Shown: positions 3 through 53,184, numbered from the stretch's first letter. The stretch is 64,000 bases of DNA from Marsupella aquatica (GCA_973895155.1 OZ316892.1:510917-574916); one strand, 5' to 3'. A program made the numbers and translations. The notes: generated by a model from the sequence alone, not told the origin.

Positions 3-1679
3 AGGCCGAATGTGCAAAGATTTGCGGCGTGCTATAATTGTGGTCAACCTGGCCATTTTGCTAGAGAATGCCCGAATGCACGCAAACAGGGTGATGGACA
101 ACCAGCTCAGCTATGTATGGGATGCCGACAGGAAGGTCATATGCTAGGGCAATGTCCTACTTGGTTGGCAGGCCTGGCCGCAAATCATAAGCTTTTGCCG
201 ATCAAGATCTTACCGCCAGGTACTACCCCCGGAGGAGTTCAAATCAACCACATCGAACTAGGATGGCAAGAGGATGTCGAGGCAGAGTTCGTACCATCTG
301 ATGATGAGGCCGAAGCCCTATCAACCTTCTCAGAGGAGGATTTAGATCATGATTGCTACCGGGTCTCTACTCGATCTACCAGAAGGAAGGAAAGGTGGGA
401 TGGGCTGGCCAAAAATTAAGGGAAGGTTACGGAGGAAAGGATCGACTCTTCGTCAACATCAACAGAAGGAGAAGGGAGGGCTCCGGCAATACAGGTAAGC
501 CATGAGCCCACCAGTGAAACCAATCCTTCACAAGATAGCGACTTCAATCGAGATCATCCTAAGTTGTTCTACCCCTCTGTTACGGCTAGTGTTAAGGAAC
601 AACTAAGAGAATTAGAAACCCTGGAGAATACCGAAGCCATTGCCAAGGATGTAAAACGAGCAAAAGCATTGTTTGCTTCGGAAGACCCAACAGCTGTGGA
701 GACTAGCGTGGCAAAACTGGCCGAATCCAAGACGGAAACACCACCAGAAGAGAAGCCGATTGTTCCCTATGACCTGGCTAAAGATGTACTAGAATCTAGA
801 GTCTCGGCAACAGTAGGTCAACTATTGAAAAATAGCCCGTACTTCCGGAAGCAATTAAGGAAGGCTATTCTCGGCAAGCCGAGATTACCCAAGGTAGCAA
901 CCAGATCCGACGTACTAATGATAGAAGAAGATCAAGGAGCCCCAGCATTACCATTAATGATTCAAGGAGAATTATTACTACGGGTACCCATCGATGGAGG
1001 ATCAGGGGTATGTATTATGATTGATTCAACAGCAAAAGGGTGGGGTCTAACACCGGAGATGACTGGAAGAGTGTTGAACATGGCCAATGGATATCAGGTC
1101 ATTCCGACGGGAGTGTTAACCGGCATCAAGACAGAGATAGGAGGTATCTTCTTTAGCATTAACTATGTAGTAATGAAGCCGGTAAATCCTACGTCATTCC
1201 GGCTATTGATTGGTAGGCCATGGCTGTACCTAGCCGAGGTAATAGAAGATTGGGGTAAAAAGCAGTTCACTTTCGGGACCCCCTCTATCACGGTATCCTG
1301 GGACACTAAGGATGACCGTAGGAAAAGCATAAGGGAAGTAGATGGGTACGATAGTGGACTGGAGTCAGCCGATGAAGTACGTTGGTTAGAATGCCTCACT
1401 AACCTAACCGAAGAAGGTGTCTTTGGACCAGAGGTACCCCCCAGCGGATTATGGCAAGAACCAATGGAAGGTGACTTGGAAGAAGAAGACGAAGAGGTCG
1501 AGGACTGCTTTACAATAGAATCCACCTTTTTAGCTGCAATTCCGGAGGAAGTTAAGGATGTAGACCAATTGGATGAAACGGCTAAGTGGGGAGCAGTAGT
1601 AGGGACAGTGGATTTTCTGCAGGCGTTGTGGCAGAGCCGACGGGGTCCACAACGCCATCGATCATCGGCAAGGAATTAA
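3..1679 (+). CDS. gag: gag-protease polyprotein (partial; one in-frame TAA at 417-419)
   Basis: Zinc knuckles CYNCGQPGHFAREC and CMGCRQEGHMLGQC; aspartic protease motifs VPIDGGSGVCIM and LLIGRPWL. ORFs 12-419 and 564-1679 share a frame, and 420-563 is open. Confidence 0.85.
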
Positions 1680-4600
1680 ATACCAAGGGATCGGCATACA
1701 AGCCGATTACGAGGGCAAAACAAATTGAGGCCCTATTAGAAGCCGAGAGAGCACAGCGGCCTAACTCTCAGGAGCAAGAGGTGGATGAGATGGACAGACA
1801 CGATCTAGAGCCAAGGCAGGAAGGGGAGCCGACCACTAATTCAAAACCGAATAGACCGGTAAGGGGACAATCTATGGACACCAAGGAAGGGACCGACTCG
1901 GCTAGTCCAGCCGAGATCCCAGTTTATGGAGGTATGAGATTAGAGAGACTGGAAGCCGAACTGGACCCGAATTTGAAGAAGCAGATTAATATGATCCAAG
2001 CACGGCAATATCGGAAGCTCGACTTAGGAGAGGGAAGAGAACTGAACTTAGGGAGAAACCTAGCACCTGAGCTCGAGAAAGAGATCAATGACTTATTGAT
2101 TGAATTTCAGGATGTGTTTGCATGGAGTCACCAAGATCTAAAGGGAGTAGATCCAACACTAGGGGAACATCGAATTGATCTCATGTTAGGAGCCAAATCA
2201 TTTCGACAACCAATTCGAAGGATGAACCCGAAGTATTCCCTGCTGGTCAAAACAGAAATCGACAAACTAGTGGAAGCTGGATTCATCACTCCAGTCCTGC
2301 ATTCAGACTGGGTGTCTCCAATTGTGATAGTTCCCAAGAAAGCTGGACCCGATGGTAAACCCAAGATCCGGGTTTGTCAGGATTACAGGAAGCTGAATGA
2401 AGCAACATTAAAAGACCATTTTCCTTTACCGTTTACTGATATGGTACTAGACATGGTAGCCAGTCATGAACTATATTCATTCATGGATGGATACTCTGGT
2501 TATAACCAAATCAGGATTCGGCAGGAAGACCAAATCAAGACGGCCTTCATCACGGAATGGGGGATCTATGTCTTCAATCATATGCCGTTTGGACTCTGCA
2601 ACGCACCAACTATGTTCCAACGATTAATGGTGAACATTTTTCATGATTACTTGAGAAAGTTCATGGAAATCTTCATTGATGACTTTGCAGTATTCGGGAA
2701 GGCATCGAAACATGCTAAATACCTCAGGAAAACCTTCATGAGATGTAGAGAGGTGGGTCTCAAGTTACACCCAGATAAATGTTTTTTTGCAGTAACCGAG
2801 GGGGTGCTACTAGGTCACAAGGTATCAAGGAAGGGCATTGAGATTGACAAAGGTAAGCTAGCAGTATGGCTAGATATCATGCAACCTAAGAACATAAAGG
2901 ATGTAAGATCCTTCTTGGGATGCATTGGTTACTATCGCCGGTTCATCAAGGATTTTGCCAAGCTAGCTTTACCATTAACCAATATGCTCAAGGCAGGAGC
3001 AGACTTCGAACCCACACCCGAACGAGTCACAGCGGTGGTAGAATTGAAGCAGATGTTAGTAGAGGCCCCAGTCATGATAGCACCGGACTGGAACAAAGAT
3101 TTTCATGTTTTTGTAGATGTCTCGGGCTTCTGTATTGGCTCAGTACTAAGTCAGTTGGATGAGAAAGGAAGGGACCATCCCATATACTTCGCAAGCCGTC
3201 AGCTTGCCGATGCCGAACGGAACTACTCTACCACGGAAAGAGAAGCATTAGGAGTCATTTATTCTTGTAAAAAGTTTAGGCATTATTTACTAGGGTACAA
3301 GGTAATCTTTCATACTGATCATGAAAGTTTGAAGTACCTAGTCAATAAGCCGGACCTTACAGGCAGAGTAGCAAGATGGATTTTGCTATTACAGGAGTTT
3401 GACTATGAGCTGAGGATCAAGCCGGGAAAGTTACATGCCAATGCCGACTTCTTTTCAAGGATCACAGGTAAACCTGCCACGGATTGCATCGATGATCGAT
3501 TCCCCGACGAGGAGCTATTCGTTGTGGAAATAGCTGGTACATGGTACCCTGAGATTTTACAATTTCTCAGCACTTCCAGATTACAGCCAGGATTAAGCCG
3601 AGAGCAAGCCGCAGTCTTTGTGCGGAAGGTCAGACAGTATCAGTGCATTAAAGGCATACTGCACAAGCATGGAATCAACGGCACGATTCAAAGGTGTTTG
3701 GAAAAGAGAGAGGTAAAACGAGTCCTACGGGCCATGCATGGAGAGGAGGCCGGAGGACATTTTGCCCCAGTAACCACATCTAAGAAGATATTAAATGCCG
3801 GTTACTGGTGGCCCACCTTGCACAAAGATGTCTATCAGTTTATCAAACAATGCGATCCTTGTCAACGAGCGGGAGGACCAAGGGCGTCCACCAGGCATCC
3901 ACTGCACCCTATTCTACCTCTGGCACCATTCGAGAAGTGGGGTATTGATTACATTGGACCTCTGAAACCACTGACCCACCCTCGACGGAACAAGTACATA
4001 ATCCTGGCTACGGATTATGCAACTAAATGGGTAGAGGCCAGACCAACAACGAAGGATGATGCAATTACTACGGCTAGATTCATGTATGAGCAGATCTTCA
4101 CCAGGTATGGAGCACCCCTAGAATTAGTTAGTGATAGAGGAACCCATTTTTTGAATGATATAATTAGTCGTTTAAATGAGCAATATTTAGTTAAACATAG
4201 GCCTACTACTCCCTACCATCCAAAGGCAAACGGGTTGACAGAACGAGCAAACGGGATCATAGGAAAGATATTGAACAAGACAGTAGCTCAGAACAAACTC
4301 GATTGGGATGATAAATTGTTTGCTGCTGTTTTTGCTTACAATCTGGCCTATAAATCCACTACCGGTCATACACCCTTCTTCTTAACCTTTGGACAAGAAG
4401 CCCTGGTACCCATGCAACTTGAGATACCGACATTTCAAGTTACAATTGAGGAAAGAGCCTCAGCGGAGGAGAGCCTAAAGGAGCGAGAATATAGGTTAGA
4501 AGCTTTAGAGGAAGCGAGAATGATTTCAGCCGAGAGAGTAGAATATAGACAGAATATCATGAAGCAGCAGTATGATAAAAGGTTAAAAGTAGTTAGTATT

Positions 4601-4852
4601 CATACCGGTGATCTTGTGCTACTTTATGACAGTAGGTATAGTAGGTTTCCAGGAAAGCTTTACACTCGCTGGTTAGGACCCTTTAGAGTAACCATGATGT
4701 TCCCCAATGGCTCCGTGCAATTGGCCAACATTACGGGAGAGGTATATCCAGTTCGCATCCATTATGACCGCCTCAAGAAATACTATATGGACGAAGATGA
4801 AGTTGTTCGCGAGGACGCTTCACAATTAAGTGGGGAGCTATGTGATGCCTAG
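1586..4852 (+). CDS. pol: pol: reverse transcriptase, RNase H, integrase (intact ORF, probably entered by frameshift at ~1610)
   Basis: RT motifs CQDYRKLN, MPFGLCNAP, FIDD; RNase H FVDVS...NYSTTEREAL; integrase HHCC zinc finger, D,D(35)E core (WGIDY, SDRG, ERAN) and GPF motif. The stop codon lies just inside the LTR. Confidence 0.96.
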   Translation: MGSSSRDSGFSAGVVAEPTGSTTPSIIGKELNTKGSAYKPITRAKQIEALLEAERAQRPNSQEQEVDEMDRHDLEPRQEGEPTTNSKPNRPVRGQSMDTKEGTDSASPAEIPVYGGMRLERLEAELDPNLKKQINMIQARQYRKLDLGEGRELNLGRNLAPELEKEINDLLIEFQDVFAWSHQDLKGVDPTLGEHRIDLMLGAKSFRQPIRRMNPKYSLLVKTEIDKLVEAGFITPVLHSDWVSPIVIVPKKAGPDGKPKIRVCQDYRKLNEATLKDHFPLPFTDMVLDMVASHELYSFMDGYSGYNQIRIRQEDQIKTAFITEWGIYVFNHMPFGLCNAPTMFQRLMVNIFHDYLRKFMEIFIDDFAVFGKASKHAKYLRKTFMRCREVGLKLHPDKCFFAVTEGVLLGHKVSRKGIEIDKGKLAVWLDIMQPKNIKDVRSFLGCIGYYRRFIKDFAKLALPLTNMLKAGADFEPTPERVTAVVELKQMLVEAPVMIAPDWNKDFHVFVDVSGFCIGSVLSQLDEKGRDHPIYFASRQLADAERNYSTTEREALGVIYSCKKFRHYLLGYKVIFHTDHESLKYLVNKPDLTGRVARWILLLQEFDYELRIKPGKLHANADFFSRITGKPATDCIDDRFPDEELFVVEIAGTWYPEILQFLSTSRLQPGLSREQAAVFVRKVRQYQCIKGILHKHGINGTIQRCLEKREVKRVLRAMHGEEAGGHFAPVTTSKKILNAGYWWPTLHKDVYQFIKQCDPCQRAGGPRASTRHPLHPILPLAPFEKWGIDYIGPLKPLTHPRRNKYIILATDYATKWVEARPTTKDDAITTARFMYEQIFTRYGAPLELVSDRGTHFLNDIISRLNEQYLVKHRPTTPYHPKANGLTERANGIIGKILNKTVAQNKLDWDDKLFAAVFAYNLAYKSTTGHTPFFLTFGQEALVPMQLEIPTFQVTIEERASAEESLKEREYRLEALEEARMISAERVEYRQNIMKQQYDKRLKVVSIHTGDLVLLYDSRYSRFPGKLYTRWLGPFRVTMMFPNGSVQLANITGEVYPVRIHYDRLKKYYMDEDEVVREDASQLSGELCDA
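1610..1669 (+). promoter_or_regulatory. Putative -1 programmed ribosomal frameshift signal (slippery heptamer plus H-type pseudoknot)
   Basis: G GAT TTT at 1610-1616 is in correct phase for gag-pro to pol (-1), followed by a 5-nt spacer. Stem 1 is GGCGTTGTGG (1622-1631) / CCACAACGCC (1647-1656); loop GCCGA (1636-1640) pairs with TCGGC (1665-1669). Confidence 0.75.
4828..4837 (+). other. Polypurine tract of family A element
   Basis: AAGTGGGGAG sits 3 nt before the LTR-initiating TG; the same arrangement occurs in copy 3 (~61903-61912, minus). Confidence 0.75.
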
Positions 4853-4955
4853 ACAGGAATCACTCGACCGGTTAAGTGGGTAAAGCAGGAAGGCACCCTA
4901 GGAACACCTTAGTATAGTGACAAAACAAGGAAAATATAAACAATTAGGGGCAACC

Positions 4956-7900
4956 ATGGAACCCGGGCAGAGGCCGGAGGTAAGGCTGAGGGTGAAAACC
5001 CGATTAGGGTTAGGGCGCGTTAAGCGTCGGCGGCTAGGAAGGATCAACGGGAAGAAGGACCGGCAGAGGAGAGGGGTAAGGAGCGCTTGCAGGAGATGGT
5101 GGCTCATTTGCGAGCACGAACTAGGCAGACGACTACGGGAGGCCAACTACTGTCAGCTGCTTAGGCAAGCACTCGGGGAGAGAGTAGATACCGACGATCG
5201 ACCTAAGGAGGGTATGAGCAACGTCAATCAAGCGGCACATTTCTGGGGATGCCTGTTCGAACAGGCAACTGAGTACATCAAGACTTACGAGGACGAGGAG
5301 TCAGAAAGGGCAGCTCGAGAACGGCAGGAGCTCGCTCGATTGTGGGAGCTGCACAAGACGGCTTTCTTAGGAGGCGAACTCATCAAGGACGAGTTCCTGT
5401 GGACGCCTACTTCCAATCAACTCGACGATCTTCTGTTTTGCAAAGACAGCGTCGTCGGCATCCGAGAGGCCATCAAGAACTGCAACGACATACACTGGGA
5501 ATTAAAGGGTAGCACGGAAAGGTGGACCCGGGCAACGGTGCTAGGAGAAACCTCCACGGCAGCAGAGATGAAGAGGAAGGGAGCCGTCAACGATGAAGCC
5601 ACCCCGGCAAAAAGAACGAGGTCGGCGGCACCAAAGAAGCCAGCCGAGCAGCAGAGCAGGAGGCAGGGAGAAGCCGAAGAGGAGGAGGTCGATCCCATCA
5701 AGGCCATTCCAACCAGGGATGACACCTGGAAGGGCTGGGCGGCAACCCTACCGGTGGAGGTGCAACTACATTTTGCACGGGAGGAGGATGCATGCTTTAC
5801 GGCCATGCAGACCAAGAAGTACCAAGGCTTCATGGCCGGATCCGGCTTGGAGGCCTTTGTAAGATTACCATGGCTGAAGCCGGAGGTACCGGAGTCAGAC
5901 CTATTAGAATTCGTGGGGTCATGGGAACCCGAGACCAATTGCACGAGGATATATGGGAAGGATTTCTATCTTACTCCCAAGGTAATTGCCGAAGTGTTTG
6001 GCTTGCCGATGGGCAATAAGACCAAAGTTGATACCAGGAAGACCTTGCCTGACAAGGAGTTCCGGTCGTTCCCCGGGCCATCAACGAAGAATGGCTTCTT
6101 CCGGAGCACCTGCACCAACCCGCACATAGGAGAGATGATCGACTTCTTGCGGGTGACCATGCATTGTAACTTGCCGAGGGCAGAGATCGGCAAGGCACAG
6201 GTCTATCTGGCAGAAAGGCCAGACCCAAGCCGGGACTACAACGGGTACCTCCTCAACCAATTGAAGAAGATCTTAAAGGAGGAGCAGCAGGTAATCGGCA
6301 TGGGGAGCGTGTCGCGGCTTGGCTATCACATGCCGCTGTTGTGCCGGTATGCCAGAGGTCAGACTTTTGCCCCGGTACTTCCCCTGCAGGTAAGGGCACC
6401 CGAGGAAGCTCCAACACTGAGGCCGTTGGCTGAGAAGCCTCCACCACCTGTTAGTCCTACGATCGAGCAGGTGTTTAGGCCCAGGAAGGAAGACTTGCCG
6501 ATGCAGCAACCAGGCATGTAGAGTCTGCTGAAACTACTGGAGAAAGAAAAGAAATCGGCATCGGCAACAACAACAACAACGGCAACGGCAACAATGCAGG
6601 ACACTACTACAGAGGTAGGCCTACACCGGCTCACAAGAGAAAACCCCTTTGCTGGAGACAAGGAGAGAATCAGGCCGGAATCCAAGCCAGGTGTTCGAAT
6701 GTACGTGGGAACCTCAAGCTCCGAATCTGAGGCAGAATTGCCTGAAGCTCCTACCGACGAAGAGGAGAGGGAGAAGCCGGACGTCCAAGAAGTAGAGGAG
6801 GCAGTGGAGGATTGCAGCCATGATAATTCCGGCTATGGGTCGGACCATCACATTCCAGGAGTAAGGACCTGTGGCCGGTTTGTCCCCACACTTCCAAGGG
6901 TAGTGCGAGGGGACCCCAACCAGCAGAGTAGCCCTGAGTCTCCCCCACCAGATGTTGCTCCCCCGAGCTTCGACGGCATAAAACAGACGGTGCAGGAATT
7001 TCAGGAGCGAATCAAGCAGGAGGAAGAGGCCGCCCTGGCTAAGGAAAAGGATTTACCAGGAGGAGATTGGCCGGAGGACATCAGGCGGCTAGCCGAAAAA
7101 GGAAGCAAACCTCTAGCCACGATTGAAGAGATCCGCAGGACGGCGTGGGAGCAGAGGCCACGATGGGCGATGCCGATCACTTCTACTTACTCCACCTACG
7201 CTAAGAATAGAGCCATGGAGTATGGTGAGATGTGTGGGGAACTTGCGCTCGACATCTTTGGAGAGGAGTTGGAGGTAGGACCCTTTTTCCATAGGGAGCA
7301 GTTGGAGAAGCACCAATTAGAAGAAGCAGTGGCTTTAGAGAGAAGCAAGAAGGACGAGGTCATTCGGCGGCTTAGGAGGATGGGAGCCGAGATTGAAGAT
7401 CTAAGGGCGGCCAAGAAAGCCCAAGATGAACTGCGGATTAAACGACATGAGCTGAACATCATGCAGGGGCAGTTGGACGCCGCCCAGGCTGATAATCAGA
7501 ATATCAAGGATAAACTGGCTCAGACGCAGGAAGAGTTGGCCGACACGATCAAAGAGAGGGAGAAGTGGAAGCAAGAGCTGAAGAATACAGAGGAGGCCCA
7601 CATAACAGCCAACAGCCGGGCCATGGCGGAGACCCAAAGAAAGGAATGGGCGTTGAAAGGGGAGCTCGAGAAAATCCGCGGAGCCCTTGAGCAGAAGGAG
7701 GTCGAGTTAGGGAAATCCTATCAAGGGATTATGGCGCTGCAGCAGGAGCTTGCGTCCCTGACGGCCAGCTTCAAGGCCGACCTAAGGGAGAAGGACTAGA
7801 TGCTCGAACAGACTTACGCCAAGATGAACCAGATGGAGTCTGTCATCATTGCAGAGCTCGACAAGGAGCTAAGAGCAACCCAGGAGGAGAGGGCTACCTT

Positions 7901-8585
7901 GAAGAAGGAATTGGAGGAAGCCCACAGGGAGCAGGAGGAGGCCAAAAACGAGCTGGAGGGGGCACGTAAGGACCTGGATGAAACCCAAGAGGAGTTGGAG
8001 GAAATCACGAGGAAGATGGAGAACCTACAGCGGCGGGCCGACAACCAAACAGAGCGGCTGAAGAAACAAGCCGCAGTATTTAAATGCTTAGCTGCAGCAG
8101 GTCCATCTCCCGTTGGGACAAACCAGTTACCAGGGGTGGTAATTGCCGAAGGACAAGCCGCGTCAACTGCACCAGTGCCGGAAGTAAGTGGGAAGGGGAA
8201 GGGACCAGCTGCTGAGCCACCAACGAAGAAGAAGCGGAAACCTCCAGGGTCAAGGAGTAATACGACTTCACAGGCCGTGGTGATCAAGGAGGTAGACCCA
8301 GCACCGACCCCAGACAGGGTCACGGCTAAGGATCCAACTACCCTAGGGGAAGGGGAGGCCGAAGCCGAGGGAGTGGCTGAAGCCGAAGCCGTGGGAGTGG
8401 CTGAGGCCGAAGCCGTGGGTATTGCCGAGGCCGGTGTCGAGGCTGAAGCCGAAGGTGGACCCAGTCAGGCCGATGGAGAGTTGACTCGGTCAAGGGCAGG
8501 TAATCTGTCAATAGGTGGGCCAACGGCAGTGGCTGAGGAGGAAGTGTTGGGGGCGTCCATTGAGGATCCACCACCGGTGTCGTGA
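4956..8585 (+). pseudogene. LTR-encoded accessory ORF (~1209 codons; basic N-terminus, plant-transposon/PMD-like domain, long coiled coil, NLS), broken by 2 stops
   Basis: ORFs 4917-6521, 6594-7799 and 7800-8585 share one frame. TAG 6519-6521 is CAG in copy 2 (59866-59868). Motif GLEAFVRLPW...LLEFVGSW...IYGKDFYLTPKVIAEVFGLP; heptad-rich region ~7300-8070; PPTKKKRKP. Confidence 0.85.
8353..8455 (+). repeat. Coding minisatellite (18-24 bp units) encoding AEAE(A/G)VG(V/I) repeats
   Basis: Repeated gaggccgaagccg/gtggctgaagccgaagccgtgg units. Confidence 0.7.
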
Positions 8586-11025
8586 CGGTGCAAGGGCGCC
8601 GTTCCTTTTAGGGAAGGCGGACGTGGAGGGAGGAGGCGTGAGTGGGCAGGGCGGGCGCGGATATCCACGTTTAGGATTAGGATCAGAACCAGGAGCGGCC
8701 CTGACACTTAGCTTAGTGGGATTGCGGTCCCACTGGTAGGAGCAACACTTGTGCTCCTGCCTTGCTGTACATAGGTAGATTCGGGCAAGTAGATTACTGT
8801 TAAGTAGATTAGGCTTACGATGCAAAGAATGGCGGATCCACTACCAGGATAAGTACCTGGGCAGCGGGGAGCTCAGGGCCTCTTCTTTAGCAAGTTTTTA
8901 GTTTGCACCAGCCGGGCTGGGATCAAGTAGTACGAGAAGCTCTCGGTTAGTCATACAGTGACCCTTGTGTATATTCATGTTTCCTCATGCCTAAGAGCTG
9001 AATAGAGTTGGCCTCACGGCTTAGTTCGCAGAACTTGTGTATGAGATGTACTGTTTGTATGGCAAGTGCATGGTATGACTCAGTCAGAATGAGTCATTTT
9101 GCTATTTGTGTGTCGCATTAACTTGTGTGAAGAGTGCCCACATCAACAGAAGGAAGGAAAGTAAGCAGGGGAGTGAGAGTTGGATGTGTCGAGCTGAGAG
9201 AGGTCTTAGCGGCTTAACCAAGCCTATTGGGGATCATTCCGGCGGCGGAATCCAAACATACTTAACAGGAAGACAGGGGAAGACAGGGGAAGGCCTATAT
9301 TAGGCCGGCTACGTATCTCATGACCCGATGAAGGATCTGTCCAGTATATGTGTGTAAAATGTTAATAGTAGTAGTAGAAGGTTAGCAGCGTCCCATGTCG
9401 CTAAGCCGCGGAAACGGCCTCGCCAAGCACGAAACCTGCGGGAATCGGCTTGAGCTGGGGGGTTTCTTGGGTTTAGGGAGCCATGGGACGCACTACAGTC
9501 CTCACTGTCTGCACAATCAACCAAGCTATCCGGTAAGTAACCCATAAGAATCTAGACCTCCCAAGTCTAGCATCCTAACTCAAGCTCGACAGACATTGGT
9601 AAGTAGGTCAGTGATAGGTCCTCCCAATGCCATAAGTCAAAACTAGAACCAACACCCACTATTCGTCTAGAACAGTTCCTTCCTTGGGTGCAACCCGGGT
9701 TCCTCCTTGTGTACCTATCCATGACCAACTAACCGCCCTGCCCCCAGAACATGCTCATGGCCCAATTAGCGTAGCTTGTCCTAAAGCTTCTCCCAACATG
9801 CCAAGATCAGAATGGCTCCAACTCTCGGTTCCCGCTCCACTGATGGTCTAGGAGCCAAGTGCCCTTGGAACTCAACCTCCATGCCTACTTGGCCTTGCCT
9901 CCCCAACGCAAGCTCCCTTGGGAGACTGAACACGGTTTGGCTGCTATCTCGATAGGATTTGGCAAGCGAGTGAGATATCCCCCGTAAACCCCAAGAACCC
10001 ATGACAACCCTAGACCCAACTGAGCTTAGGAGGATGTAGTCCTCCTTGAGAGCTTTCCAACGCAACGCAACCCGTTGGAAAGTTATCATCATTTATGTTT
10101 GGCGTTTTTCCTTAATGTCGCAACCGTCGCGGCCCACGACTTTGGCTCACCCTTAGCCCCCAGGGAAACACCACTCCCCTCATATATGATTTTGGAGACT
10201 TGCCATCCCCGGACCTATTTTGGCCCCCAAATTTGGGCGGGCCCCCACTAGACCCTAACCTGCATGTCTGGGCGCACCACCAACTGGCAATGTCCATAAC
10301 TTTCTAGTTAGGCATCTGTAAGTGGAGTGCCTTAGCCCATTGTGATTGAGCCGACCCAATGCTCATGCCTAGGCCCTCAGATCCTGTCATTGTCTGGGAC
10401 TCCCTATGGGCCAAACTTGCGGGTCATAACTTGCGACAGTTGCCCATGGAGTAAAATCCATTTGCCTTAGGCCCAAGATGAGCTCTCCTTCAAGCACTCA
10501 AAATTCAAAGTTTGTTCGGGGGTTCGGATGGTCGACCTTGAGCCCGGCCCGTTCCCCTTGACCCGACTAGCCCTCAACTAGTTTAAGTCCTAGTGTGTGT
10601 CACCAACTTAGCGTCTTGCCTTCACCAGTGCCACTCCCCATTGTTCACCAGTCTCCCCATGCTAAGTCCTCCGCGGATGGCCATTTCGGGCCTAGACCAT
10701 AGGGGAGCTCGGCGTCGGAGTCAGTGACGCCGGAGCTAAGTAAGGTAGTTGATTTTTGTGACTTTACTACTATGCAATGATAGATTGTAGATGTATGCAA
10801 CTTGGTTGACAGGTTCAGCCCAAAAACTATTATGCAACTTGGACTTACATAGCATGTTGCGTGCTTTCTCTAGTAATGTCTGATTCAACCATTCTGCAAC
10901 TCCATTATGCTACGGGGCCTCCAATACATGTAATGACGCTTGGGGCCAAAGTCCTGACCAAATTGGTCAAGCTCATTGGACTTATACTCGCCACCGTTAT
11001 TTGATCACACACTTCAACCACTCAC

Positions 11026-11855
11026 ATGTTATCCTTGGGTTGTGTATAGGATTGACTAGTAGGACACCTTGATAGGCGTTGACTTGTAAGTAAGTTGCCC
11101 ATATACACAAACTCGGATCTCTGTTTCATTTAAAAAGACTACAATTCAGAAATAAAGCCTAGACAGCTTCTGTAGATTGGCTCTATAGATTCCATTAATT
11201 TGTGATTAGACACAAACAACATGACTGTGAAAGCGCTCCCCCTCCCTCTCCTAATGATTCAGAAGTAAAGCCCATCCAACATTATTTTAATTGGCTCTTA
11301 TAGAATGCATGGAGAGTAGATACATACAACATGAATATGACAGCCCCCCTCTCCCTGTGCTTCCTTGGAGATGAGAAAAGAATCAAGCATGAGGTTCAAG
11401 TCAAGTCTTTATCACATAAGCCTCAAAGCAGGAAATTCATGCAAGTGTAAGTGTCACACCGTGGTGTTGGAACAAGGGTTTTTGTTTACAAGTAGGTACT
11501 CACAACGTTGAAATCGCTCTTCAGTCCCATTACCTGAAGGCCTTGTACAACAACAATGGCTGATGCCAATACCAATCAAACTGGAAGATGAGGGATGAAC
11601 TGTGTACATCAAACGTCTTTGTTGAGAATTTCTTCAAGGTTGTTTGGTCACATCATAATCCAAGAAAATGACATGCAAACAAATCAATCATACCTGGTTG
11701 TAAAGTGTTGCCTGAAGCACTCCGTATCCAAAATTTCCATTGAATCAGCTCCCTTCCCGTGAAGAGAAAAGAGAGCTTAATGGTATAGTGGTGAGAGATA
11801 TAATCTTTCCTGTTTGACAAACTTTCAAATCAGTCTAGATAAGTAGTGCAATCTT
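11026..11855 (-). repeat. Inverted diverged duplicate of 46284-47035 (leader region upstream of the PPR gene)
   Basis: Reverse-complement matches, e.g. atgttatccttgggttgtgtatagga vs ~47010-47035, and ccttgtacaa...tgatgccaataccaatca vs ~46576-46614. Confidence 0.85.
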
Positions 11856-14800
11856 CCAGAGCTAAACCCTAAACCCTTCCTACCTCACCCTACCTCCCCT
11901 TCCTGCTCTAGTGGTGGATCCGCTACCCCGGCTTCATCAATGATCGTCCCGGCCTCGGCCTTGCCCTCCCCGCCTTCTAGGACAGTTGGATCCTCTGTCG
12001 TGACCCTGCCTGAGGGTGGTGCCGTGTTCTCCTCCTTGGTCACGGTGGTGGCTTGAGAAGCCATGTTGCTCCCTGACCCAGAGGGTTTCCGCTTCTTCTT
12101 CTTCCCTTGGTCGGCAGCTGGTCCCTTCCCCTTGCCACTTAATTACCTCCGGCACTTGTGCGAGTGCCGCAGCTTGTCCCTCGGCCAGTACTATCCCTGG
12201 CAACTTTGTTGCCACAATTGGAGTCTGAACGGATGAAGCCAAGCACTTGAATACTGCGGCTTGTTTCCTTGGCCGATCCGTTTGGTTGTCGGCCCGCTGC
12301 TGTAAGTTCTCCATCTTCCTCGTGCTTTCCTCCAACTCCTCTTGTGTTTTGTCCAGGTCCTTGCACGCCTCCTCCAACTCCTTCTGGGCTTCCTCCAATT
12401 CTTTCCTTAAGGTAGCCCTCTCCTCCTGGGTTGCTCTCAGCTCCTTGTCAAGCTCCGTTACGACCTCAGACTCCATCTGGTTCATCTTGGCATAAGTCTG
12501 ATCGAGCTGGTCGTCCTTCTCACGCATGTCAACCTTGAAGCTGGCCGTTAGGGATGCAAGCTCCTACTGCAACACAATAATCCCTTGATAGGATTTCCCT
12601 AACTCGGCCTCCTTTTGTTCAAGGGCTCCGCGGAGATCCTCGAGCTCCCCCTTCAACGCCCTCTCCTTCCTCTGGGTCTCCGCCATGGCCCGATTGTTGG
12701 TTGCTATGTGGGCCTCCTCTACGTCCCTCAGTTTTCCTTGACCAAGTTGGCCAACTCCCCTTGGGTCCAAGTCAGTTTATCCTTGATAATCTGATTATCA
12801 GACTGAGCTGTATCCAGTTGCCCCTGCATGATGTTTAGCTCATGCCGCTTAATCCGCAGCTCATCTTGGTCTTTCTTGGCTGCCTTTAGGTCTTCTGCCT
12901 TGGCTTCCTTCTCCCTAAGCCATTGGATGACCTCGTCTTTCTTTCTCCTCTCCAAAGCCACCGCTTCTTCCAATCGGCATTTCTCCAACATCTCCCTCTG
13001 GAAAAAGGGTCCCTGCTCCAACTCCTCCCCAAAGATGTTGAGCGCAAGTTCTCCACACATCTCCCCGTACTCCATGGCTATGTCTTGTGCATAGGTGGAG
13101 TGAGTAGTAGTCATCGGCATCAACCACCACGGCCTTTGTTCCCAAGCCGCCTTTCGGATTTCTTCTATCGTGGCTGGAGGGCTGCTTCGTCTTTCTGCAA
13201 GCCACCGGATGTCCTCTGGCCATTCTCCCCTAGATAAATCCTTCTCCTTGGCCAGGGCTGCCTCCTCTTCTTCCCTGAGGCACTCTTGAAACTCTTGTGC
13301 CGTCTGTGTTATCCCGTCAAATCTCGGGGGAGCGACATCTGGTGGGGGAGACCTGGGGCTGCTCAGCTGGGTGGGGTCCCCTTATACTACTCTTGGAAGC
13401 GTGGGGATGAAATGGCCACAGGTCCTTACTCTTGGGACATGATGATCCAACCCATAGCCTGAGTCATCATTGCCATAGTCCTCCATTACCTCCTCCCCGG
13501 CTTGGACTACCGGCTCCCCCCGCTGCTCTCTTGGTCTTGCTGTGAATACGGCCTCTTGCCGAACATAGCTCATGAGTCCTGGTTCCTCCTCCGGCTTCCA
13601 AGCTGTCCTCTCCTTTTGTTTACCGTGACCAGGAGCTTTGGGCTGCTCTCCCTTGGATTCTGGACTTGTGGCTCCCACATACATTCAAACCCCCGGCTCG
13701 TGTTCCGGCCTCCTTCTTTCCTTGGCTCCGATAAAGGGGTTTTCCCTTGTGAGTCGGCTTAGGCCTACTTCTTGAGCAGCGTCCTATATCGGTGCCATTG
13801 CCGTTGCTGTCTTCTTTTCCTTCTCCAGCAGTTTCAGAAGATTTTGCATGCCTGGTTGATGCATCGGCAAGTCCTCCATCCTCGTCCTAAACACTTGCTC
13901 GATCGTAGGACTGCCGGGTTGGTTGGGTTCCTCTGCTGCCGGCCTCTGGTCCGAAACCTCTTCTAGTGCCCTTGACTGCAGGGGAAGTACTAGGGCAAAG
14001 ATCTGACTTTGGGCATACCGGCACAATAGCGGCATGTGATAGCCAAGCCGGGACACGCTTCCTTTGCCGATCACCTGTTGTTCCTCCTTCAAGATCTTCT
14101 TTAGTTGGGTGAAGAGGTACCCGTTGTAGTCCCGGCTTGGGTCTAGCCTCTCCACTAGGTAGACCTGTGCCTTGCCAATCTTTGGCCTCGGGAAGTTGCA
14201 ATGCATGGTTACCCGTAGGAAATCGATTATCTCCCCAATGTGCGAGTTGGTGTAGGTGTTCCCGAAGAAGCCATTTTTTGTTGATGGCCCTCGGAACGAT
14301 TGGAACTCCTTGTCTGACAAGGTCTTCCTGGTATCTACTTTGGTCTTATTGCCCATCGACAAGCCAAACACTTCGGCAATCACCTTGGGAGTGAGATAGA
14401 ACTCCTTCTCATACACCCTTGTGGAATTTGTCTTGAGCTCCCATGATCCCACGAATTCTAATAAGTCAGAATCTGGCACCTCTGGCTTCAGCCACGGTAA
14501 TTTCACGAAGGCTTCCAGGCCGGCCGGATCCGGCCATGAAGCCCTGGTACTTCCGAGTTTGCATAGCCGTAAAGCATGCATCCTCCTCTCATGCAAAGTG
14601 TAATTGCACTTCCTCAGGGATGGTCGCCGCCCAGCCCCTCCATGTGTCATCCCTTGTTGGAACAACATTGATGGGGTCAACCTCCTTTTCTTTGGCTTCT
14701 CCCTGCCTCCTGCTTCCTAACTTGGCTGGCTTCCTTGGTGCCGCCGACCTTGTTCTCTTCGCAGGGGTGGCCTCTTTGTTGTTGTCCACTTTCCTCTTCA

Positions 14801-15765
14801 TAGCGGCTGCCGTGGATGTTTCTCTGAGCACGGTTGCCTTCGTCCACCCCTCCATGCTACCCTTCAGCTCCCAGTTGTCATGCCGTCAGCCTAGGCCTTA
14901 ACCCGGGCTTCGGCTTAGACAGGCATATCCTTTGTTAATATGAGGGTTTGGGCAGGGAGGGAGGCACGGAATGGACCTAACTCACATAAACTAGCGCTAA
15001 GTGCACCTATTGTCATATACGGACACCTCTTAGGTATGGCTTGTGTTCCGCCGCCGGAACATACCTCAATCGATAGCAGGATCGACCCCGGCTTACAGGT
15101 TTCTAAGCCTTCGTGTTGTCCACCTTCGATCCAGATTCGATGGTATGGGTACTCAACCCGGGCTCGCAACCACTTACCCGCAAGCTACACCCCGTGCACA
15201 ACTTGGGTAGTGCGTTTGGCCAAGCGTTGGCACATATACATGAGATTCACACATATACATACGCACAAGCATACAATCTCAATTTACACGAAGGAAATAA
15301 TGGGAAAGGATTTTACTACATAGGAGACATATGCGTACACTTAGTTGACCCGAAAGCTCTGGAATGAATAGGTCCGAGGCCGAGGGTGTACACTACAACG
15401 GAGCCTGGCTCCGCACTCGCCCAGCAAGCTTAGTCCTACACCCTCCCCTTGGTACTCTTTCACTCCCATAGGTCGGGACTCCCCGCATACCGCGGATGTC
15501 CAACACTGAGACTAAAAATCCTCCTGCCTCTACCAAGGGGTGCACTAAATACTAAGGGCCGAGGAACGGAGTGCCCTTGCGCCCGAAGATTTGCTAACTA
15601 AGGTCCTAACTAAGCTGGCTGTCAGGCCGGAAAATGACTTGTCTTATTAGAAGATCCTAATCTACGCAGGTTATACAGCATGGCAGTGCTGCTTTAACTA
15701 GGGCAGGTGCTTGTCCCTATAGCCTAATTTAACTACTCCTACTCTATTTTAATCATACTCCGCCG

Positions 15766-18325
15766 CTAATGCTTGGCACGCTTGCCAGAGCCGCCTGAGT
15801 GGGAGCGGCTATCCCGCTGCCTTCTAAGCTTGTCGGCGTCCTGCTTGAGTAGTTGGACTTGGTCCAGCAGAGATTCATTCTCCCGCTTCGCAGTGTCTGC
15901 CTCTTCCACGGCCTCCTGGCATGCCTCCTCCAGTTGCTGGGTGTCGCTCGTCAGCTTATCCTCCAACTTGACCTGTTTTGTGACTTCTCCTTGAAGCCGC
16001 GCCACCTCTGCCTTCAGGGTGTCAATCTCGGCTGTGTCCCGCTGAGACCTCGAGTCAGCTTCCTCCAGATCCTTTTGCCAACTGACGGTTTGCCCCTACA
16101 AACCATCAATCTTGGTCCGGAGCCGTGCGATCTTGGCGTCCTTTCCAAGCCCGGCCTGTACTGCTAACGCTGCTTGGGCCCTAGCCTCGGCAACCTGGTC
16201 CTCCGTGGCCGTTACCTAAGGCCGTAGTTGCTGGAGTTCAGCCTCCAGGGTTGCCACTTTGTCCTTCAGGTAGACAGACTCAACCCGATATCGCTCTATT
16301 CTCTGTGCTGTCTCTGCCTGCGCATGTCCTGCCCTTACTGCCGCAACCAACTCTTGGTTGAAGAAGTAGGCCACCCTCCGGGCCATGTATTCCTCGGTGT
16401 CCCGAGAGATTTGTTGCGAGAAATCTCCCTACAACCCGTTCAGAAATGTGCCCGGCGCAAAGAGTTTCGGATGGTCTAGACTGTGTCCCTCTGGATTCGA
16501 GCATGGGCAGACTCCAACCCGTGCGGGAGTAGGAGTGGACACATCCAGCCCTTGAGGTAAGTCGGTCGAAGGGGCTGGTTCCATTGGAGGTGGACGGTTC
16601 TCCTGCACCACAGCGGGGGGTGGCGGAATCCCCTCGGCTACCATGGCATCTGCTTTGGATGCGGCTTCATCCGGCTTGGCTTCGATTGCATTGTCCCGAT
16701 TGATCACGTCTAAGGTCGCGATAACTTCAATGGGTATGTCTGGCGGGGTGGCAGCGGCTGGTTGTGGGGCCGGGGTAGCAGGACTTGCAGCCGCCAGACT
16801 TTGGGCCTTGGGCTGCGGTCGCCTCACCTGGGTTGGGAACACCCATTTTGGCGGGGTCAGCTCGGGCTGCGGTCGAAACGAGCATACCACTCGATGATGA
16901 TTTCAATGTGGCTAGCGAAGTACGCCCTTCCAGCAAGGTACAAAGTCTTCCTTCTCATCTCCATCTCCTCGTGGAACTTCTTGACGAAGAAGGACGCCCA
17001 CTTCTTGGGCCGATAGTTCTCCACCTGGATGACCTAAGCGGCCGATATTTCTCCTCTGGGTTCCATCATGTGGAGGACATACCGCTGGAACTCCAGGCGT
17101 TCTGCTACCTTTGGGATGAGGCACGTCCTCATTAAGAACCCATTGTCCACTACCCCCTCGACCGGGAAGCTAGATGACTGGTATCTAGCTCCCTTGCCCC
17201 CAAGAGCCCGCGATTCTACCCGGTTTATCCCCTCGGCCGGGTAAACCAAAAATCATCTTCAAACGTGCCTCATTGAGACACATCACTCTTCCGTGCGCTC
17301 GGGTTTGTTGACGGCCTCGTCAAAGTTCTGAATGAACTCCATCATATCTTGCCCATAGTACCTGCTTCCGTTCCAAGGGAGAGAGGCGAGGTGCTCAAAC
17401 CCTTGGGTCTTCAGATAGCATGCATGCTTGGGGTGGAGGATGTTCTTGTGAACGTTGTCCCCCATGCGATGCATGGTCAGCTTGGCTACCACAACCGTGG
17501 CCAAAGGCAACCCGGATACGGCTGCGGGCTCCTTCCTCTTCCTACCCCGAGATTGATTTCCGGGGTGACTGGAAGAGGGGGACATCTCTCCATCCTCTCG
17601 GTCAGGTGGTGGTAGCGCGACTGCCGTGAGTTTTGGTGCCAAGGCCACTAGAGTTACCATGTTATCACCTCGGGCTTGCTGGAGTGGTGCTGGGTTGTCT
17701 GGCGCTTGTTGAGTCATACCCCGCGGCTGTCGATTCAGAGGAGGGTGAGCCTCCTTGTCTTCAGAGCTAATATTTACCGCATTCACCACGGATCGTACTC
17801 GGAGAGGCAGTGGGACCGGTGGCGGGGACCGGCTCGGTTGAGGCCGAGGAGGTGTAGGCACGGGTATGGGCACGGGTTGGCCGACACTGGTCGTTGATGG
17901 TAGAGTTGCCATGAAGTTCTGCAGGTGCCGGTGGAGATTCTCCGAAGCAAGTGAAGACGGCCCTGTCAACCGGGCAGTGTTGAACTCGCTGTTGATGATA
18001 GCCCGGACCCGAGCGGGGATGTGGTCAAAGTAGTGCCGCTGCAAGTTGATCGTGCCCGGGATATTGATGACCTCGTCCAGAAGCCGATGTATTTGCCCCC
18101 GTCAAAGAAGTACCCTGATACTTCTTTGGGTCGGTAAAGCTCGCTCTGGGATGGGTAATCAAAGTTAAGGAGATAGTGGTGTCGTCCTGCTAGGCGGATG
18201 GCTCTCTCGTATTCGCGTTTGATCTCGTATCGGCGCGGGTTGGCATGTTTCAATGAGTCCGCCAAGTGCCCTCCGATAGACAGGAACTGAGTCCAGAATC
18301 GTATGGCCAAACTGGAAAGGATCAT
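15766..18325 (-). pseudogene. Degraded LTR-encoded ORF of family B (homologous architecture to the family A LTR ORF)
   Basis: Successive minus-strand fragments 17966-18325, 17283-18044, 17034-17249, 16429-16890, 16280-16504 and 15766-16005. GFEHLASLPW...DMMEFIQNFD aligns with GLEAFVRLPW...DLLEFVGSWE. C-terminal coiled coil; basic RGRKRK and GKRAKH motifs. Confidence 0.75.
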
Positions 18326-18432
18326 GTGCGATATTCAGAGGAGAGAGCAGGTGACTAAGGAAAAGCGAGAGAGTCAGGGTCGAAGCTGGCGAGTGGACTG
18401 AAGAACTGATGCACTGCAAAGGATCGGCCCCC

Positions 18433-18439
18433 TTTTATA
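18433..18439 (-). promoter_or_regulatory. TATA box upstream of the family B LTR ORF
   Basis: GGGTATAAAAGGG on the minus strand, followed by a CT-rich leader and an ATG at 18325. Confidence 0.6.
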
Positions 18440-20261
18440 CCCTGAGAGCTCGCCAACCGCCCGACGCCTCCTCGTCGCTTATAGGCCGAGCCTTTCACGC
18501 TCGCAGTGTACTGGCCCCTTTGCCGGTCCGGGTCAGCTTGTGCTTGGGGGTCTCACTACATGGGGACCTCCCCATCACCTGCGACGTTTTTAGGCCTTGG
18601 ACCCCCTAAAATGTAAGAAAAAAATATTATTTTTTAACCCCTATAAAGTTGGAATATTTTTGGATTATTCCAAAATTTGGATTAAAAAGGCCCTAATGTT
18701 CTTATAAGTCTCAAAATTGAATTTAAAAGACCCTAGTGTTCTTCTACAAAAATTCTTAAGTCTTCCCCTACAACCAATAAAATGACCATATCCTTCGTCG
18801 CACGTGATATGCCATTTTTGTGGAAGTGAAACCCCCCAGAGCTTGTGTGAGTGGCCGCCTCCCGGAGTTCGTTATACAGACCCGAGGGAGGGGGAAAGAG
18901 GGCCCATTACACCCTCGCAACCCGGGCGTGCAAATGGCGACCCGCCGCCAGCCCAAACATGAATTCCCCTTATTGACTAATGATTTCCTACTCATAATGG
19001 CTACCTAAATACTATCATTATGCTAATAATAATGGCCTAAGATACCCCTAACGCACGTGCTAAGCGTGGTTAGACCGAATCACTCATTACCCGCCGTACC
19101 GGCGGCGTCACACCAGTGTATGTCGTTGCAGCGGTTGATGGCTTCTTGGATGCCGACAATTTTGTTCTCACAAAACAGAAAGTCATCGAGCTCGTCGCCA
19201 GTAGGTGTCCACAAGAATTCAGCCTTGATGAGTTCTCCTCCTAAGAAGACAGACTTTTGCAGCTCCCATAGTCGAGCGAGCTCCTGCCATTCTTGAGCTG
19301 CTCTTTTCGATTCTTCATCCTCGTAGGTCCCAATGTACTCAATTGCCTATTCAAACAGGGATCCCCAAAAATGTGCTGCTTGATTGACGTTGCTCATACC
19401 CTCCTTGAGTTGATAGTCGGTATCTGCTCCCGCCCAGAGTGCTTGCCTAAGCAGCTGACAGTAGTTGGCTTCACTTTTGTACCCAATCAGTACTTTGTGT
19501 CACGAATATGAGACACAATCATGATAAAATTTGAAGTCATAAGTCATTGGTAAGTAATACTTCTTAGCATCTGTGCTCAAGCAAGGTCATGCCAACAATT
19601 ATGCATCAAGAACTAAGGAATATGTGAAATTTCACCAACAAGGAATCTATTTTCACATATACCAAAGATTTAACATTCACAATGATTTTTACTTCAAAGG
19701 TCCAAACTTCTCATTCATTTAGACTTGAAGGGGGAATAATTCATTTGTATTAAGTACTCATATGCAATGGAGTTCTCTTTACAAGGTGGAGGTAACAAAG
19801 TTGTAACTGAGCGCTCATGAAATTTCTTCACACTAAAAGTGACAGACTACATATAGGGTAGCAGGAACCAAAGGAAAAAAAGATAATGAAAGGACATGCC
19901 CTTTCATATCTTAAGGGTCATAAACTAAAGTAAAACGTATTAAAATAGGTTATAAGAGTGGTTCACTAGAATGCTCCTGGAATAAAAAAAACTAATCAAA
20001 AATGATCTCTAGTGTAAACTGGAGTAAAAGTGTCTTTGCGCTTTTGCGTTAAAACTAACAAATAGCAACTTTGTCTGAATTTTAATTTCTAACATAAAGG
20101 TCAGAATGGGGTGAAACTTTTCTAGGTGGAAGAATTACATATATGCTACAGTTGGCAAAATTTCAGACTTTTCTGAGGTGTCTAAGTGCTTAAATAAAAT
20201 CGGTGAAAAGTGCTGTTGGATATAAAATACACTTTTTCCGAAAAAATTTCTAAGTGTCGGA

Positions 20262-23492: not shown

Positions 23493-23834
23493 TGTTGAGC
23501 ATAGATGACATTCGCAACGACAAGCCCATGAACCATCCAACGCACAATAGTTGACACAGAGAGATACGTGATTCACCTCCACATGAGGCTACGTCCATGG
23601 GAACACACAAGAGCTTTACTACACTCTAGGCCGACCAGCCATACCAAGCATCCACAGCACAAGCTCTCCCTATCTCTCAACTAGCTTCATAACAATGAGC
23701 CTAAGTTCCACCAGGGTCTAGCATCAGCCCTGGCTATATGCACACTAGCACTACCGCTAACATTAGCTAAGTCCTAACCAGAGTTAGACTAACTGTGGTT
23801 AGCTCATGAGTCACAAGACGAGCAATATCTAACA
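23493..23834 (-). repeat. Copia 3' LTR
   Basis: Direct repeat of 29918-30261; PPT adjacent. Confidence 0.93.
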
Positions 23835-24030
23835 AACTCCCCCTTGACTCTTGTCTTGGGGACTAGAGTAAATGCTACCATATGGAATCCTCAGCGGGAA
23901 GTTCTAGACAATCACCAAATCGAGTCTCCCCCTAAAAACCACAAGGGTTAACTAGAACTAAGCCGTAGCCTAACAGGAATGAGTAATCCATATACAAATA
24001 GTCACACATTGCTAAATAACTCTACTTGCA

Positions 24031-27000: not shown

Positions 27001-28313
27001 TTCATCATGTTGGGAATATGTCTCACATTCCTCAACGTTCTCACAGCACCATCAAACATCTGAAATCTTACAGATCCAAGTCCAACAACTTGACATGGGA
27101 TTCCATTTCCCATCAACATTGACCCGTTGGAAACTGTGTAAGAACTGAAACAATCTCTCCTAGAGCAAATGTGAAAAGTACATGCACTATCTAGAATCCA
27201 GTCATCACTACCTGGATTTGACACTACGTTGAGAGCATAACCTTGACATCACAATATATCATCATCATCGAGTAAATCTACCTCATGCGAGCTCGATGCC
27301 GCGTTAGCAGAGGCAGTAGGGACCTTTACTCGACAATCCCTTTTCATGTGGCCAGACTTGCCACAATTCCAACATGCAAGAGGCTTCCTCTCTTGCAATT
27401 TCCCTCTGGATTTAGATCTCCCCCGTGATGTAGATCTAAACCTGTTCTGCCCATTCGTGCGCTGCGCTGCTCTCCCATGGTTCACGTTCAGCGTAGTGCC
27501 AAAAGAAGATGCTGTCTGTGATTGACCCAGCTTCTTCTGAGCATCATCAGACAGTAAAGAGCTCACCACCTCATTACACAAAATGGACTTCAGATCTCTA
27601 TACAAGAGCACGTGTTTCAAGCCCTGATATGACGGCGATAAGGAGCTTAGCAAAAGCAAGGCCTTATCCTCATCTTCAACTCCTTTTCCCAGGTTTGACA
27701 AATCCACCGCTAGACTGTCAAACTCATCCCGGTGATCCTGCATCTTGCTCCCTTCCTTGAGCCTGAGGCTCATCAAGAGAGAATTCTTGTACAGCCGGTC
27801 AGATGCATCTTCTCGGTAGTACTTCTCTCTTAGAGCCTTGAACAATGACGCGCAATCCGCATAATCATCCAGCTGCTTGATGATGTACGGCTTCAGATAA
27901 AGCATCACTGCATTGACAACAATCACCTGCTCCTGTCTCCACTACCTCACTAAAATCTCCTTCTCTCCATCATACTGCTCTCGCGATGAAAGCAGATGAG
28001 CTAAGCCCATGGCCTGTAGAACACCCTTCACTTGCTTCTCCCACAACAAGCAATCAGTATGACCATCGTACTTCTCCACCTCAAACTTCACTCCTCCAAA
28101 TCTAGCCATTTCCCTCTTCTTTCCAACTACCAACAGCTCTGGTAGTAACACAACTTCCTCCACTGCACGCAGCACCGGTGATCGTACCGGTGTCACTAGT
28201 TCTTCCTCAAACGGTAGCAGCTCCTCCTCAGACTCACCGTCTGATCGTCGCAATCCTGAAGCTCCACCGACGTCAAATCTTCCAGTATCCTCCGAGTCAC
28301 TCATATGAAACAA
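24031..28313 (-). pseudogene. Copia gag-pol polyprotein (gag, CCHC, protease, integrase, RT, RNase H) with multiple stops/frameshifts
   Basis: Motifs CWNCGKSGHMKRDC, WILDSAC, LWHFRLGH, VHSDVWGP, LRSDNGGEY, YKARLVAKG, SLYGLKQSP; YVDD is mutated to *VDD; RNase H EAEY and KHINIRYHF. Confidence 0.93.
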
Positions 28314-29917: not shown

Positions 29918-30261
29918 TGTTGAGCATAGACGACATTCGCAACGGCAAGCCCATGAACCATCCAACGCACAATAGTCGACACAGAGAGATACGTGGTTCA
30001 CCTCCACATGAGGCTACGTCCACGGGAACACACAAGAGCTTTACTGCACTCTAGGCCGACCGGCCATACCAAGCATCCATAGCACAAGCTCTCCCTATCT
30101 CTCAACTAGCTTCGTAACAATGAGCCTAAGTTCCACCAGGGTCTAGCATCAGCCCTGGCTATATGCACACCAGCACTACCGCTAACATTAGCTAAGTCGT
30201 AACCAGAGTTAGACTAACTGTGGTTAGCTCATGAGTCACAAGACTAGAGCAATATCTAACA
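29918..30261 (-). repeat. Copia 5' LTR
   Basis: Adjacent to the PBS; repeat of 23493-23834. Confidence 0.93.
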
Positions 30262-52505: not shown

Positions 52506-53170
52506 TCACACCTCAACAAACCAGAAACCAGAAAGTACTACAATACATTCTATCGACTTACCTGCAAGGAATTTGTAATGGTCATCGACATAAGAGTTCT
52601 TGCTTACCCTGCTTACAAGCAGCTTCAAACCAGAGCAAGATCCGACCAACTCCTCTTCAACAAATTTCTTTGAAACATGCAATAAGGCTTTCTTATAATC
52701 CAATGCAGGATTGCTAGACACTAATGTAGCTGCTTCCATCTTAAGTCTCTGTGTTCGATCATACCTCAGGTAGGCCCCAGTTGAATGGTGTCCACTGATT
52801 AGTGTACCAACTTTTTCAGGAACTCCACGAGCAGCCATCCGGGTGATGAGAGTTGCTCTCCCACTGCGATTGGTGAATACTTCAGGTGTCAATCCGACTA
52901 CCAGAGCCATATTTTTCAGCCACTTACCAGCAGTATCTCTCCCTACCTTGTGAAATTTGTTGTACCGAGCAATCCCCATTGAATTCGTGACGGCCTGCAT
53001 AAATAAGTCTGGCTTCTCGGTTTTTGCTTCAGGTGGAAAATGCCACTTGTACTGCTTCACCATCATTAAGAAGACAATCTTCATCGTAACTGTGGAAGAT
53101 ATTCTCAAACTGCTCCTCTTGGTACTTCTGGAGTGTGTACAAGTTGTTTTTGCTCTCCCTCTCTTCAAAC
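52506..53170 (-). pseudogene. Crypton/DUF3504-like tyrosine recombinase C-terminal exon (frameshifted)
   Basis: FEERESKNN in a second frame after acceptor ttttgtgttcag; then VGRDTAGKWLK, TNRSGRATLITRM (H-x-x-R box with H>R) and ISGHHS...YLRY. Confidence 0.65.
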
Positions 53171-53184
53171 CTGAACACAAAAAC

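Follow-up and report, generated by a model that had tools for sequence, protein, structure and literature searches.

Can the long terminal repeat (LTR) of a plant retrotransposon carry a protein-coding gene, and what might such a gene do? The question is raised by 64,000 nucleotides of Marsupella aquatica DNA (GCA_973895155.1 OZ316892.1:510917-574916), the whole of which is referred to here as the window. An earlier interpretation made without database searches, the sequence-only reading, had placed a long open reading frame (ORF) within the LTR of a gypsy element at this locus. Self-comparison of the window identifies four copies (A to D) of one element family and one nested stranger (copy E). 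In copy A a frame of 1,209 codons under purifying selection lies within a 4.66-kb LTR, and its product may be an anti-silencing factor resembling the Athila ORF, PMD and VANC proteins; this reading as a whole is given a probability of about 0.45. The copies and the parts of copy A are as follows.

3-419, plus strand: gag tail of copy A with a CCHC knuckle (Pfam scan and frame map).
After the gag tail, up to 1679, plus strand: protease-like frame of copy A, 419 codons, recognised by eye from its motif, without a Pfam match.
1586-4852, plus strand: pol of copy A, 1088 codons, with reverse transcriptase, RNase H and integrase in Ty3/gypsy order (Pfam).
4826-4840, plus strand: tract resembling a polypurine tract (PPT), directly 5' of the LTR and within the integrase frame.
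4841-9497, plus strand: 3' LTR of copy A, 4657 bp, TG...CA.
11890-19472, minus strand: copy D, a decayed piece of the gene, about 80% identical, split by copy E; no LTR ends were found for it.
14876-19112, minus strand: copy E, a 4237-bp TG...CA element with target-site duplication (TSD) ACTGG and a decayed homolog of the gene, with its core at 17453-16878 and a coiled coil reaching about 15769.
58188-60795, plus strand: copy B, the left end of a 5' or solo LTR with a foreign flank and gene codons 1-833, cut by copy C.
60796-64000, minus strand: copy C, with pol, PPT and a 3' LTR of 1104 bp (61899-60796) that lacks the gene and is joined at GGGAAG.

The family belongs to Ty3/gypsy, as indicated by the reverse transcriptase, RNase H and integrase order, the CCHC gag (both by Pfam) and the PPT directly before a TG...CA 3' LTR in copies A and C. 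No chromodomain or second RNase H was matched in pol by Pfam at E 0.1. The stop at 417-420 splits the gag tail from the protease-like frame, which is in the same phase, and the overlap with pol (1586-1679) is in another frame; this reflects either decay or unusual expression.

At the LTR junction of copy A, ...AAGTGGGGAGCTA is followed at 4841 by TGTGATGCC, and the integrase stop codon (4850-4852) is 12 nt inside the LTR. Because this stop is inside the LTR and the PPT-like tract inside the integrase frame, pol leads into the LTR without an intervening internal region. The same start is seen in copy B, which opens at the identical TG (58188) with an unrelated flank, and in a contig of run X6, which also begins at 4841, with 106 other letters. 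The right ends of copies A (9497) and C (60796, minus strand) are the same GCACYACA, again in unrelated flanks. Both boundaries proposed by the sequence-only reading therefore hold, and they enclose the frame at 4956-8585. Copy B is 98.3% identical to copy A over 2614 nt. An LTR left end with a foreign flank can only be that of a 5' or a solo LTR. This one includes gene sequence, 833 codons of it, which is therefore part of the LTR. The location of the gene inside the LTR is very probable, and approximately 78% of the copy A LTR is coding. No 5' LTR followed by a primer-binding site was seen within the 64-kb window, the 5' ends of the copies being outside it. A pattern scan of viral contigs gave no match, and the single 24-bp match from a metagenome scan was rejected as chance.

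Six sequencing runs under four organism labels contain at least half of the LTR words. Read evidence comes from four of these six best runs; 8 of the 14 runs with LTR words had shares under 0.5 and were excluded. Copy A sits in another high-copy repeat (9498-9900), which has high depth in 4 of 4 runs.

Not every LTR of the family has the gene. The pol of copy C is 99.2% identical to that of copy A and its flank is the gene of copy B, yet its LTR consists of A 4841-5060 fused to A 8611-9497 at GGGAAG. Gene-less LTRs of 1104 bp therefore exist, and the claim of the sequence-only reading that each element has two copies of the gene is not supported. A deletion is favoured over an insertion, because copy C is young, the GGGAAG duplication is imperfect in most reads (variant at 8615), and the coding and non-coding parts of the LTR have similar depth in 4 of 4 runs (0.69-1.32, contig depth being a weak measure). 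The right breakpoint of copy C (window 61680-61691; A 8602-8616) coincides with a splice-acceptor-like tract right after the gene stop, and the left side has no GT. Both nested insertions, E in D at 14876 and C in B at 60796, fell inside the LTR gene itself.

The features of the gene and its surroundings in the copy A LTR are as follows.

4935-4961, plus strand: TATA(A/T)A box at 4935, the only one in the LTR, and ATG at 4956 in ACCATGG context, too close to cooperate.
4956-8585, plus strand: LTR-resident frame, 1209 codons, with in-frame stops at 6519 and 7797.
5139-5555, plus strand: conserved N-terminal domain, residues 62-200, dN/dS 0.20, with homologs P0005, P0007, P0009 and P0019, of no family.
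5793-6383, plus strand: core domain, residues 280-476, predicted to be Transposase_32/ATHILA/PMD/VANC-like.
7341-8100, plus strand: long coiled coil, about residues 800-1050, followed by PPTKKKRKP, which resembles a nuclear localisation signal (NLS).
9237-9250, plus strand: palindromic 14-mer TTCCGGCGGCGGAA near the LTR 3' end, common to copies A, C and E.

The gene frame has 2 stops, as against at least 15 in the best frame of 200 dinucleotide-block shuffles. None of the copies in the window has it intact: copy A has its two stops, copy B has a stop of its own and is cut at 60795, and copy D is decayed. The stops of copy A are private, as the other copies and nearly all the depth in the four runs, with their four organism labels, differ there. 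A stop common to copies B and D falls at a codon that is Arg in copy A (6906-6908). This is most simply explained as CpG decay, because selection persists downstream of it.

The gene is under purifying selection. The ratio of nonsynonymous to synonymous substitution rates (dN/dS) is 0.24 between copy A and the 80% identical copy D (0.20-0.29; 1066 codons) and 0.32 between copies A and B. By region, the comparison with copy D gives 0.20 for residues 61-200, 0.135 for 261-480, 0.14 for 681-800, 0.27 for the coiled coil and 0.51 for the tail. For the remaining sense frames the values are 0.94 and 1.24; the 0.34 of one antisense frame is expected, as it has third positions in common with the sense frame. 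No homolog covers the Arg-rich stretch of the first ~60 codons, which lies outside the regions compared for selection and may be untranslated. Among the best 40 of 342 read-variant entries, the 29 most supported in the ORF comprise 12 synonymous and 17 nonsynonymous changes; being largely private to copy A and drawn from that part of the entries, they were not used. It is highly probable that the gene encodes a functional protein. As the sequence-only reading had noted, its translation has NLS-like motifs, one bipartite and one C-terminal, and coiled-coil stretches; no transmembrane helix was found in it, the top 19-residue hydropathy being 0.98, which is not that of an env-like protein.

A homolog of the gene is present in a second element. 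Copy E shares almost no DNA with the family of copy A, yet its core is the same domain (tblastn at E 1e-6 and 22% identity; E 1e-30 for a profile from which copy E was excluded), preceded by the NLS-like RGRKRKE and followed by a coiled coil. The ends of copy E have a perfect TSD, ACTGG, and an inverted match of 9/12. It has no gag or pol match and no long internal direct or terminal repeat. It has a TATAAAA at 18439 and, 30 nt downstream, an initiator-like TCAGTT. Copy E is likely the solo LTR of a second family, which would make the gene-in-LTR layout a trait of the lineage, and the decayed homolog in it agrees with the earlier proposal that the gene survives solo-LTR recombination. A word as long as the 14-mer TTCCGGCGGCGGAA was shared in 6 of 2000 shuffles, and its hairpin is no more stable than those of shuffles in copies A and C (z -0.9 and -0.5).

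Homologs of the protein were sought with HMMER among 1.84 billion representatives. There were 24 matches, 23 of them plausible; P0023, a bacterial repeat protein, was dropped. Ten were identified as four proteins of the leafy liverwort Calypogeia fissa, five from Logan assemblies and one from other collections. An alignment-based word-index search returned 2 of 7994 candidates and adds one more C. fissa protein. Considered together with the PPR-DYW and NADK-like genes of the window, these relatives make a bryophyte host likely, probably a liverwort. Word-index searches with residues 60-500, and among proteins of 1379-3935 residues, found no homolog. The proteins P0010, P0030 and P0036 also continue into coiled-coil-like tails, while P0032 and P0033, in which the core is not covered, were left out of alignment A3.

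The sequence-only reading had likened a segment of the protein to the Transposase_32, ATHILA and PMD domains, and this likeness is weakly supported. Atlas, with values of 0.88-0.91, matches the core to PF20167 (Transposase_32) and PF03078 (ATHILA ORF-1) and gives leads to PMD and DUF1985 clusters, and there is a weak whole-domain fold match, at 8% identity, to the VANC21-DNA structure 9lnk_A. On the other hand, the Pfam hidden Markov models (HMMs) of Transposase_32, ATHILA, PMD and DUF1985 gave no match at the family cut-off to the core, its pieces or the 24 homologs, and for this reason the gene is not filed in these families. Foldseek against PDB and viral folds gave no E under 0.001, VANC was not listed by VIA on the first model or the second look, sequence searches of PDB gave no relevant match, PHROGs had no match for the core, and Rfam had none in 4700-19500. 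A fold of the PMD/VANC/Athila type is moderately probable for the core, and a resemblance to the transposon anti-silencing protein VANC is weakly predicted.

A gene of the Athila type would normally be situated between pol and the PPT. If plus-strand priming shifted to a purine tract at the integrase end, the downstream gene would become part of the LTR, and reverse transcription would then place it in both LTRs. Recombination between these would leave solo LTRs in which the gene persists and from which the protein could be provided in trans; copy C would represent a later deletion. A solo LTR could transcribe the gene, because the single TATA(A/T)A box of each family is upstream of it. The NLS, the VANC/PMD-like core and the coiled coil suggest an oligomeric, DNA-binding and likely nuclear product, which would bind the LTRs of its own family, remove or block silencing and keep them transcribed. 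VANC acts in this way against DNA methylation (PMC5735166), and PMD proteins against Polycomb, by which transposable elements are repressed in bryophytes (10.1101/2022.10.24.513474). By these analogies an anti-silencing role is a tentative assignment, somewhat short of an even chance. Against it, VANC-like tandem target arrays were not found, with no excess of 6-8-mers in four non-coding parts of the LTR. CpG depletion does not differ from that of a host gene. Telobox-like TTAGGG words are grouped near both LTR ends (4944-5015, 8607-8613 and 9472-9478), not above shuffles.

The same LTR gene may have another nuclear function: its product could transactivate the LTR promoter, direct integration to chosen chromatin as a tether, or assist in RNA export or processing. 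This is a real possibility, though less probable than an anti-silencing role, as the NLS-like motifs, the coiled coil and the selection are compatible with any nuclear role. The missing target arrays are also in its favour, the two insertions nested in the gene could reflect targeting, the hairpin-forming 14-mer is common to both families, and extra ORFs have been proposed to be retroviral-accessory-like (PMC7264820). However, the sole fold leads are to the VANC/PMD group, and the hairpin does not exceed shuffles in stability. Another proposal, which concerns expression and is compatible with an anti-silencing function, has the gene in R/U5 rather than U3: an upstream promoter would make the accessory mRNA, gag-pol RNA would arise through read-through and splicing, and copy C would derive from spliced RNA. 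The sole TATA(A/T)A box precedes the gene in each family (at 4935 in copy A and at 18439 in copy E, where the initiator follows at textbook spacing). There is a donor-like GAG/GTAAGG at 4980, and the acceptor-like TTCCTTTTAG, one of four such motifs in the 4657 bp, ends at 8611, the right breakpoint of copy C. This arrangement is nevertheless unlikely, given that the left breakpoint of copy C has no GT, microhomology suffices for its junction, copy E has no matching donor and acceptor layout, and copy A has a second TATA-like sequence, TATATT, at 9296.

Two further explanations deny that the gene belongs to the LTR. It is very improbable that the 1.1-kb version in copy C represents the true LTR and that the 3.55 kb came in as a hitch-hiking element at GGGAAG, duplicating 6 bp of target, and was afterwards replicated along with the LTR. 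Copy C does retain both LTR ends and the TATA box, and GGGAAG flanks both sides of the missing stretch in copy A. Yet most of the read depth differs at 8615 in the right-hand GGGAAG, leaving no clean duplication in most copies, and the 3.55-kb stretch has no terminal repeats. Furthermore, copy C is 99% like copy A whereas the gene is 20% diverged in copy D, the second family has its homolog between unrelated LTR sequences, and, as a weak point, the copy C junction is not among the 15 joints listed out of 109. The last explanation, an ordinary internal ORF in env-like position with the real LTR starting downstream, is already largely refuted by copy B and is scarcely tenable. Athila-type ORFs are described at that place (PMC7264820 and PMC6317226), and a purine-rich tract followed by CGTG occurs at 8625-8640. 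The boundary at the 4841 TG is, however, common to copies B and C and the X6 contig, the TG...CA ends and TSD of copy E enclose its gene, there is no transmembrane helix, and the loose ends at 8598 and 8656 look, by eye, like diverged forms of the same sequence.

The rest of the window contains other elements and genes. At 52506-53183 (minus strand) a 225-codon frame has a weak phage integrase match (phrog_1, E 0.0044), and resembles a tyrosine recombinase such as Crypton- or DIRS-like elements encode. A Ty1/copia element at 23493-30264 (minus strand) has 345-bp LTRs that are 96% alike. A related single LTR (42156-42499) is flanked by a 316-bp inverted repeat pair (41755-42937), possibly a miniature inverted-repeat transposable element. 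Two host genes are on the plus strand, one at 32170-34170 for an NAD kinase that has a DSP-PTPase domain, the other at 47497-50406, with internal repeats of 303 bp, for a PPR-E-DYW RNA editing factor.

The view that plant LTRs do not code and that solo LTRs are dead is contradicted by a selected multidomain LTR gene in two families. Such a gene would escape pipelines that seek ORFs only between LTRs. It also alters the consequence of solo-LTR formation, as the leftover repeats would likely aid the escape of the family from silencing. A wider proposal is that a liverwort gypsy lineage moved a VANC-like gene into its LTR, that its solo LTRs are cassettes unsilencing the family in trans, and that the VANC/PMD/Athila-ORF fold is a single ancient module of counter-defence, common to DNA transposons and retrotransposons from the early land plants onwards. 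This is doubtful, although if true, solo-LTR recombination, the main removal route of the host, leaves self-contained expression cassettes. If the VANC-like fold is confirmed, the Athila-type ORFs, long without explanation, would gain a testable function, and there would be a candidate retrotransposon protein for sequence-specific anti-silencing in a lineage with Polycomb repression of transposable elements.

Genes in LTRs are known elsewhere: MMTV sag, the HIV nef overlap with U3 and the 5S RNA of Cassandra are duplicated to both LTRs by reverse transcription. These are unrelated and short, either an RNA or an ORF of a few hundred codons, whereas here a multidomain gene fills most of the LTR. 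The literature search, whose scope excluded Steinbauerova 2011, Repbase and supplements, turned up no long LTR-resident gene in any gypsy family of plants, so an earlier mention is possible. Reviews locate extra ORFs in the internal region (PMC7264820, PMC6317226). Plant LTRs of up to 5-6.5 kb are known and are described as non-coding or separate from the extra ORF (PMC6317226, PMC6431247 and PMC3485330). Plant elements whose LTRs measure 3-6.5 kb, among them Ogre and Retrosat2/RIRE3, resemble the present family in LTR length and in having an extra ORF, but in descriptions of them that ORF precedes gag-pol or follows pol and the long LTRs are non-coding, as opposed to ~78% coding here (PMC3485330, PMC6431247, PMC6317226).

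The closest comparison is with Athila, a non-chromovirus Ty3/gypsy element (OTA). In Athila-type elements an ORF of this kind is placed between pol and the PPT (PMC7264820, PMC6317226 and PMC11728184). Common to both are the gypsy domain order, the lack of a detected chromodomain or additional RNase H, an extra ORF in sense orientation following pol, a core with Atlas matches to PF20167 and PF03078, and a long coiled coil (PMC11728184 and PMC6317226). The differences are that the ORF is here after the PPT, inside the LTR rather than the internal region, is 1209 codons long, and has no HMM match to either Pfam family. With regard to the Athila clade of REXdb, pol has no additional RNase H or chromodomain by Pfam, as in that clade, whereas the extra ORF follows the PPT instead of preceding it in the internal region. 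With Phygy and Selgy also possible, and because of the ORF position, the element is not firmly Athila. The Athila, Phygy, Selgy and Tat lineages are all present in a liverwort (PMC12885004). VANC of the VANDAL (MuDR) DNA transposons (DUF1985) and the PMD proteins MAIN and MAIL1 are linked to the gene by the weak fold match to 9lnk_A and the Atlas leads, and VANC is likewise an accessory protein encoded by a transposable element. In contrast to these, the present gene belongs to a retrotransposon, has relatives outside seed plants, is 8% identical and has no tandem target arrays that could be found; VANC has been described as dicot-specific (PMC13547354). In its workings the element resembles those of the Athila type that carry an accessory ORF, the product of which perhaps acts as VANC does for VANDAL.
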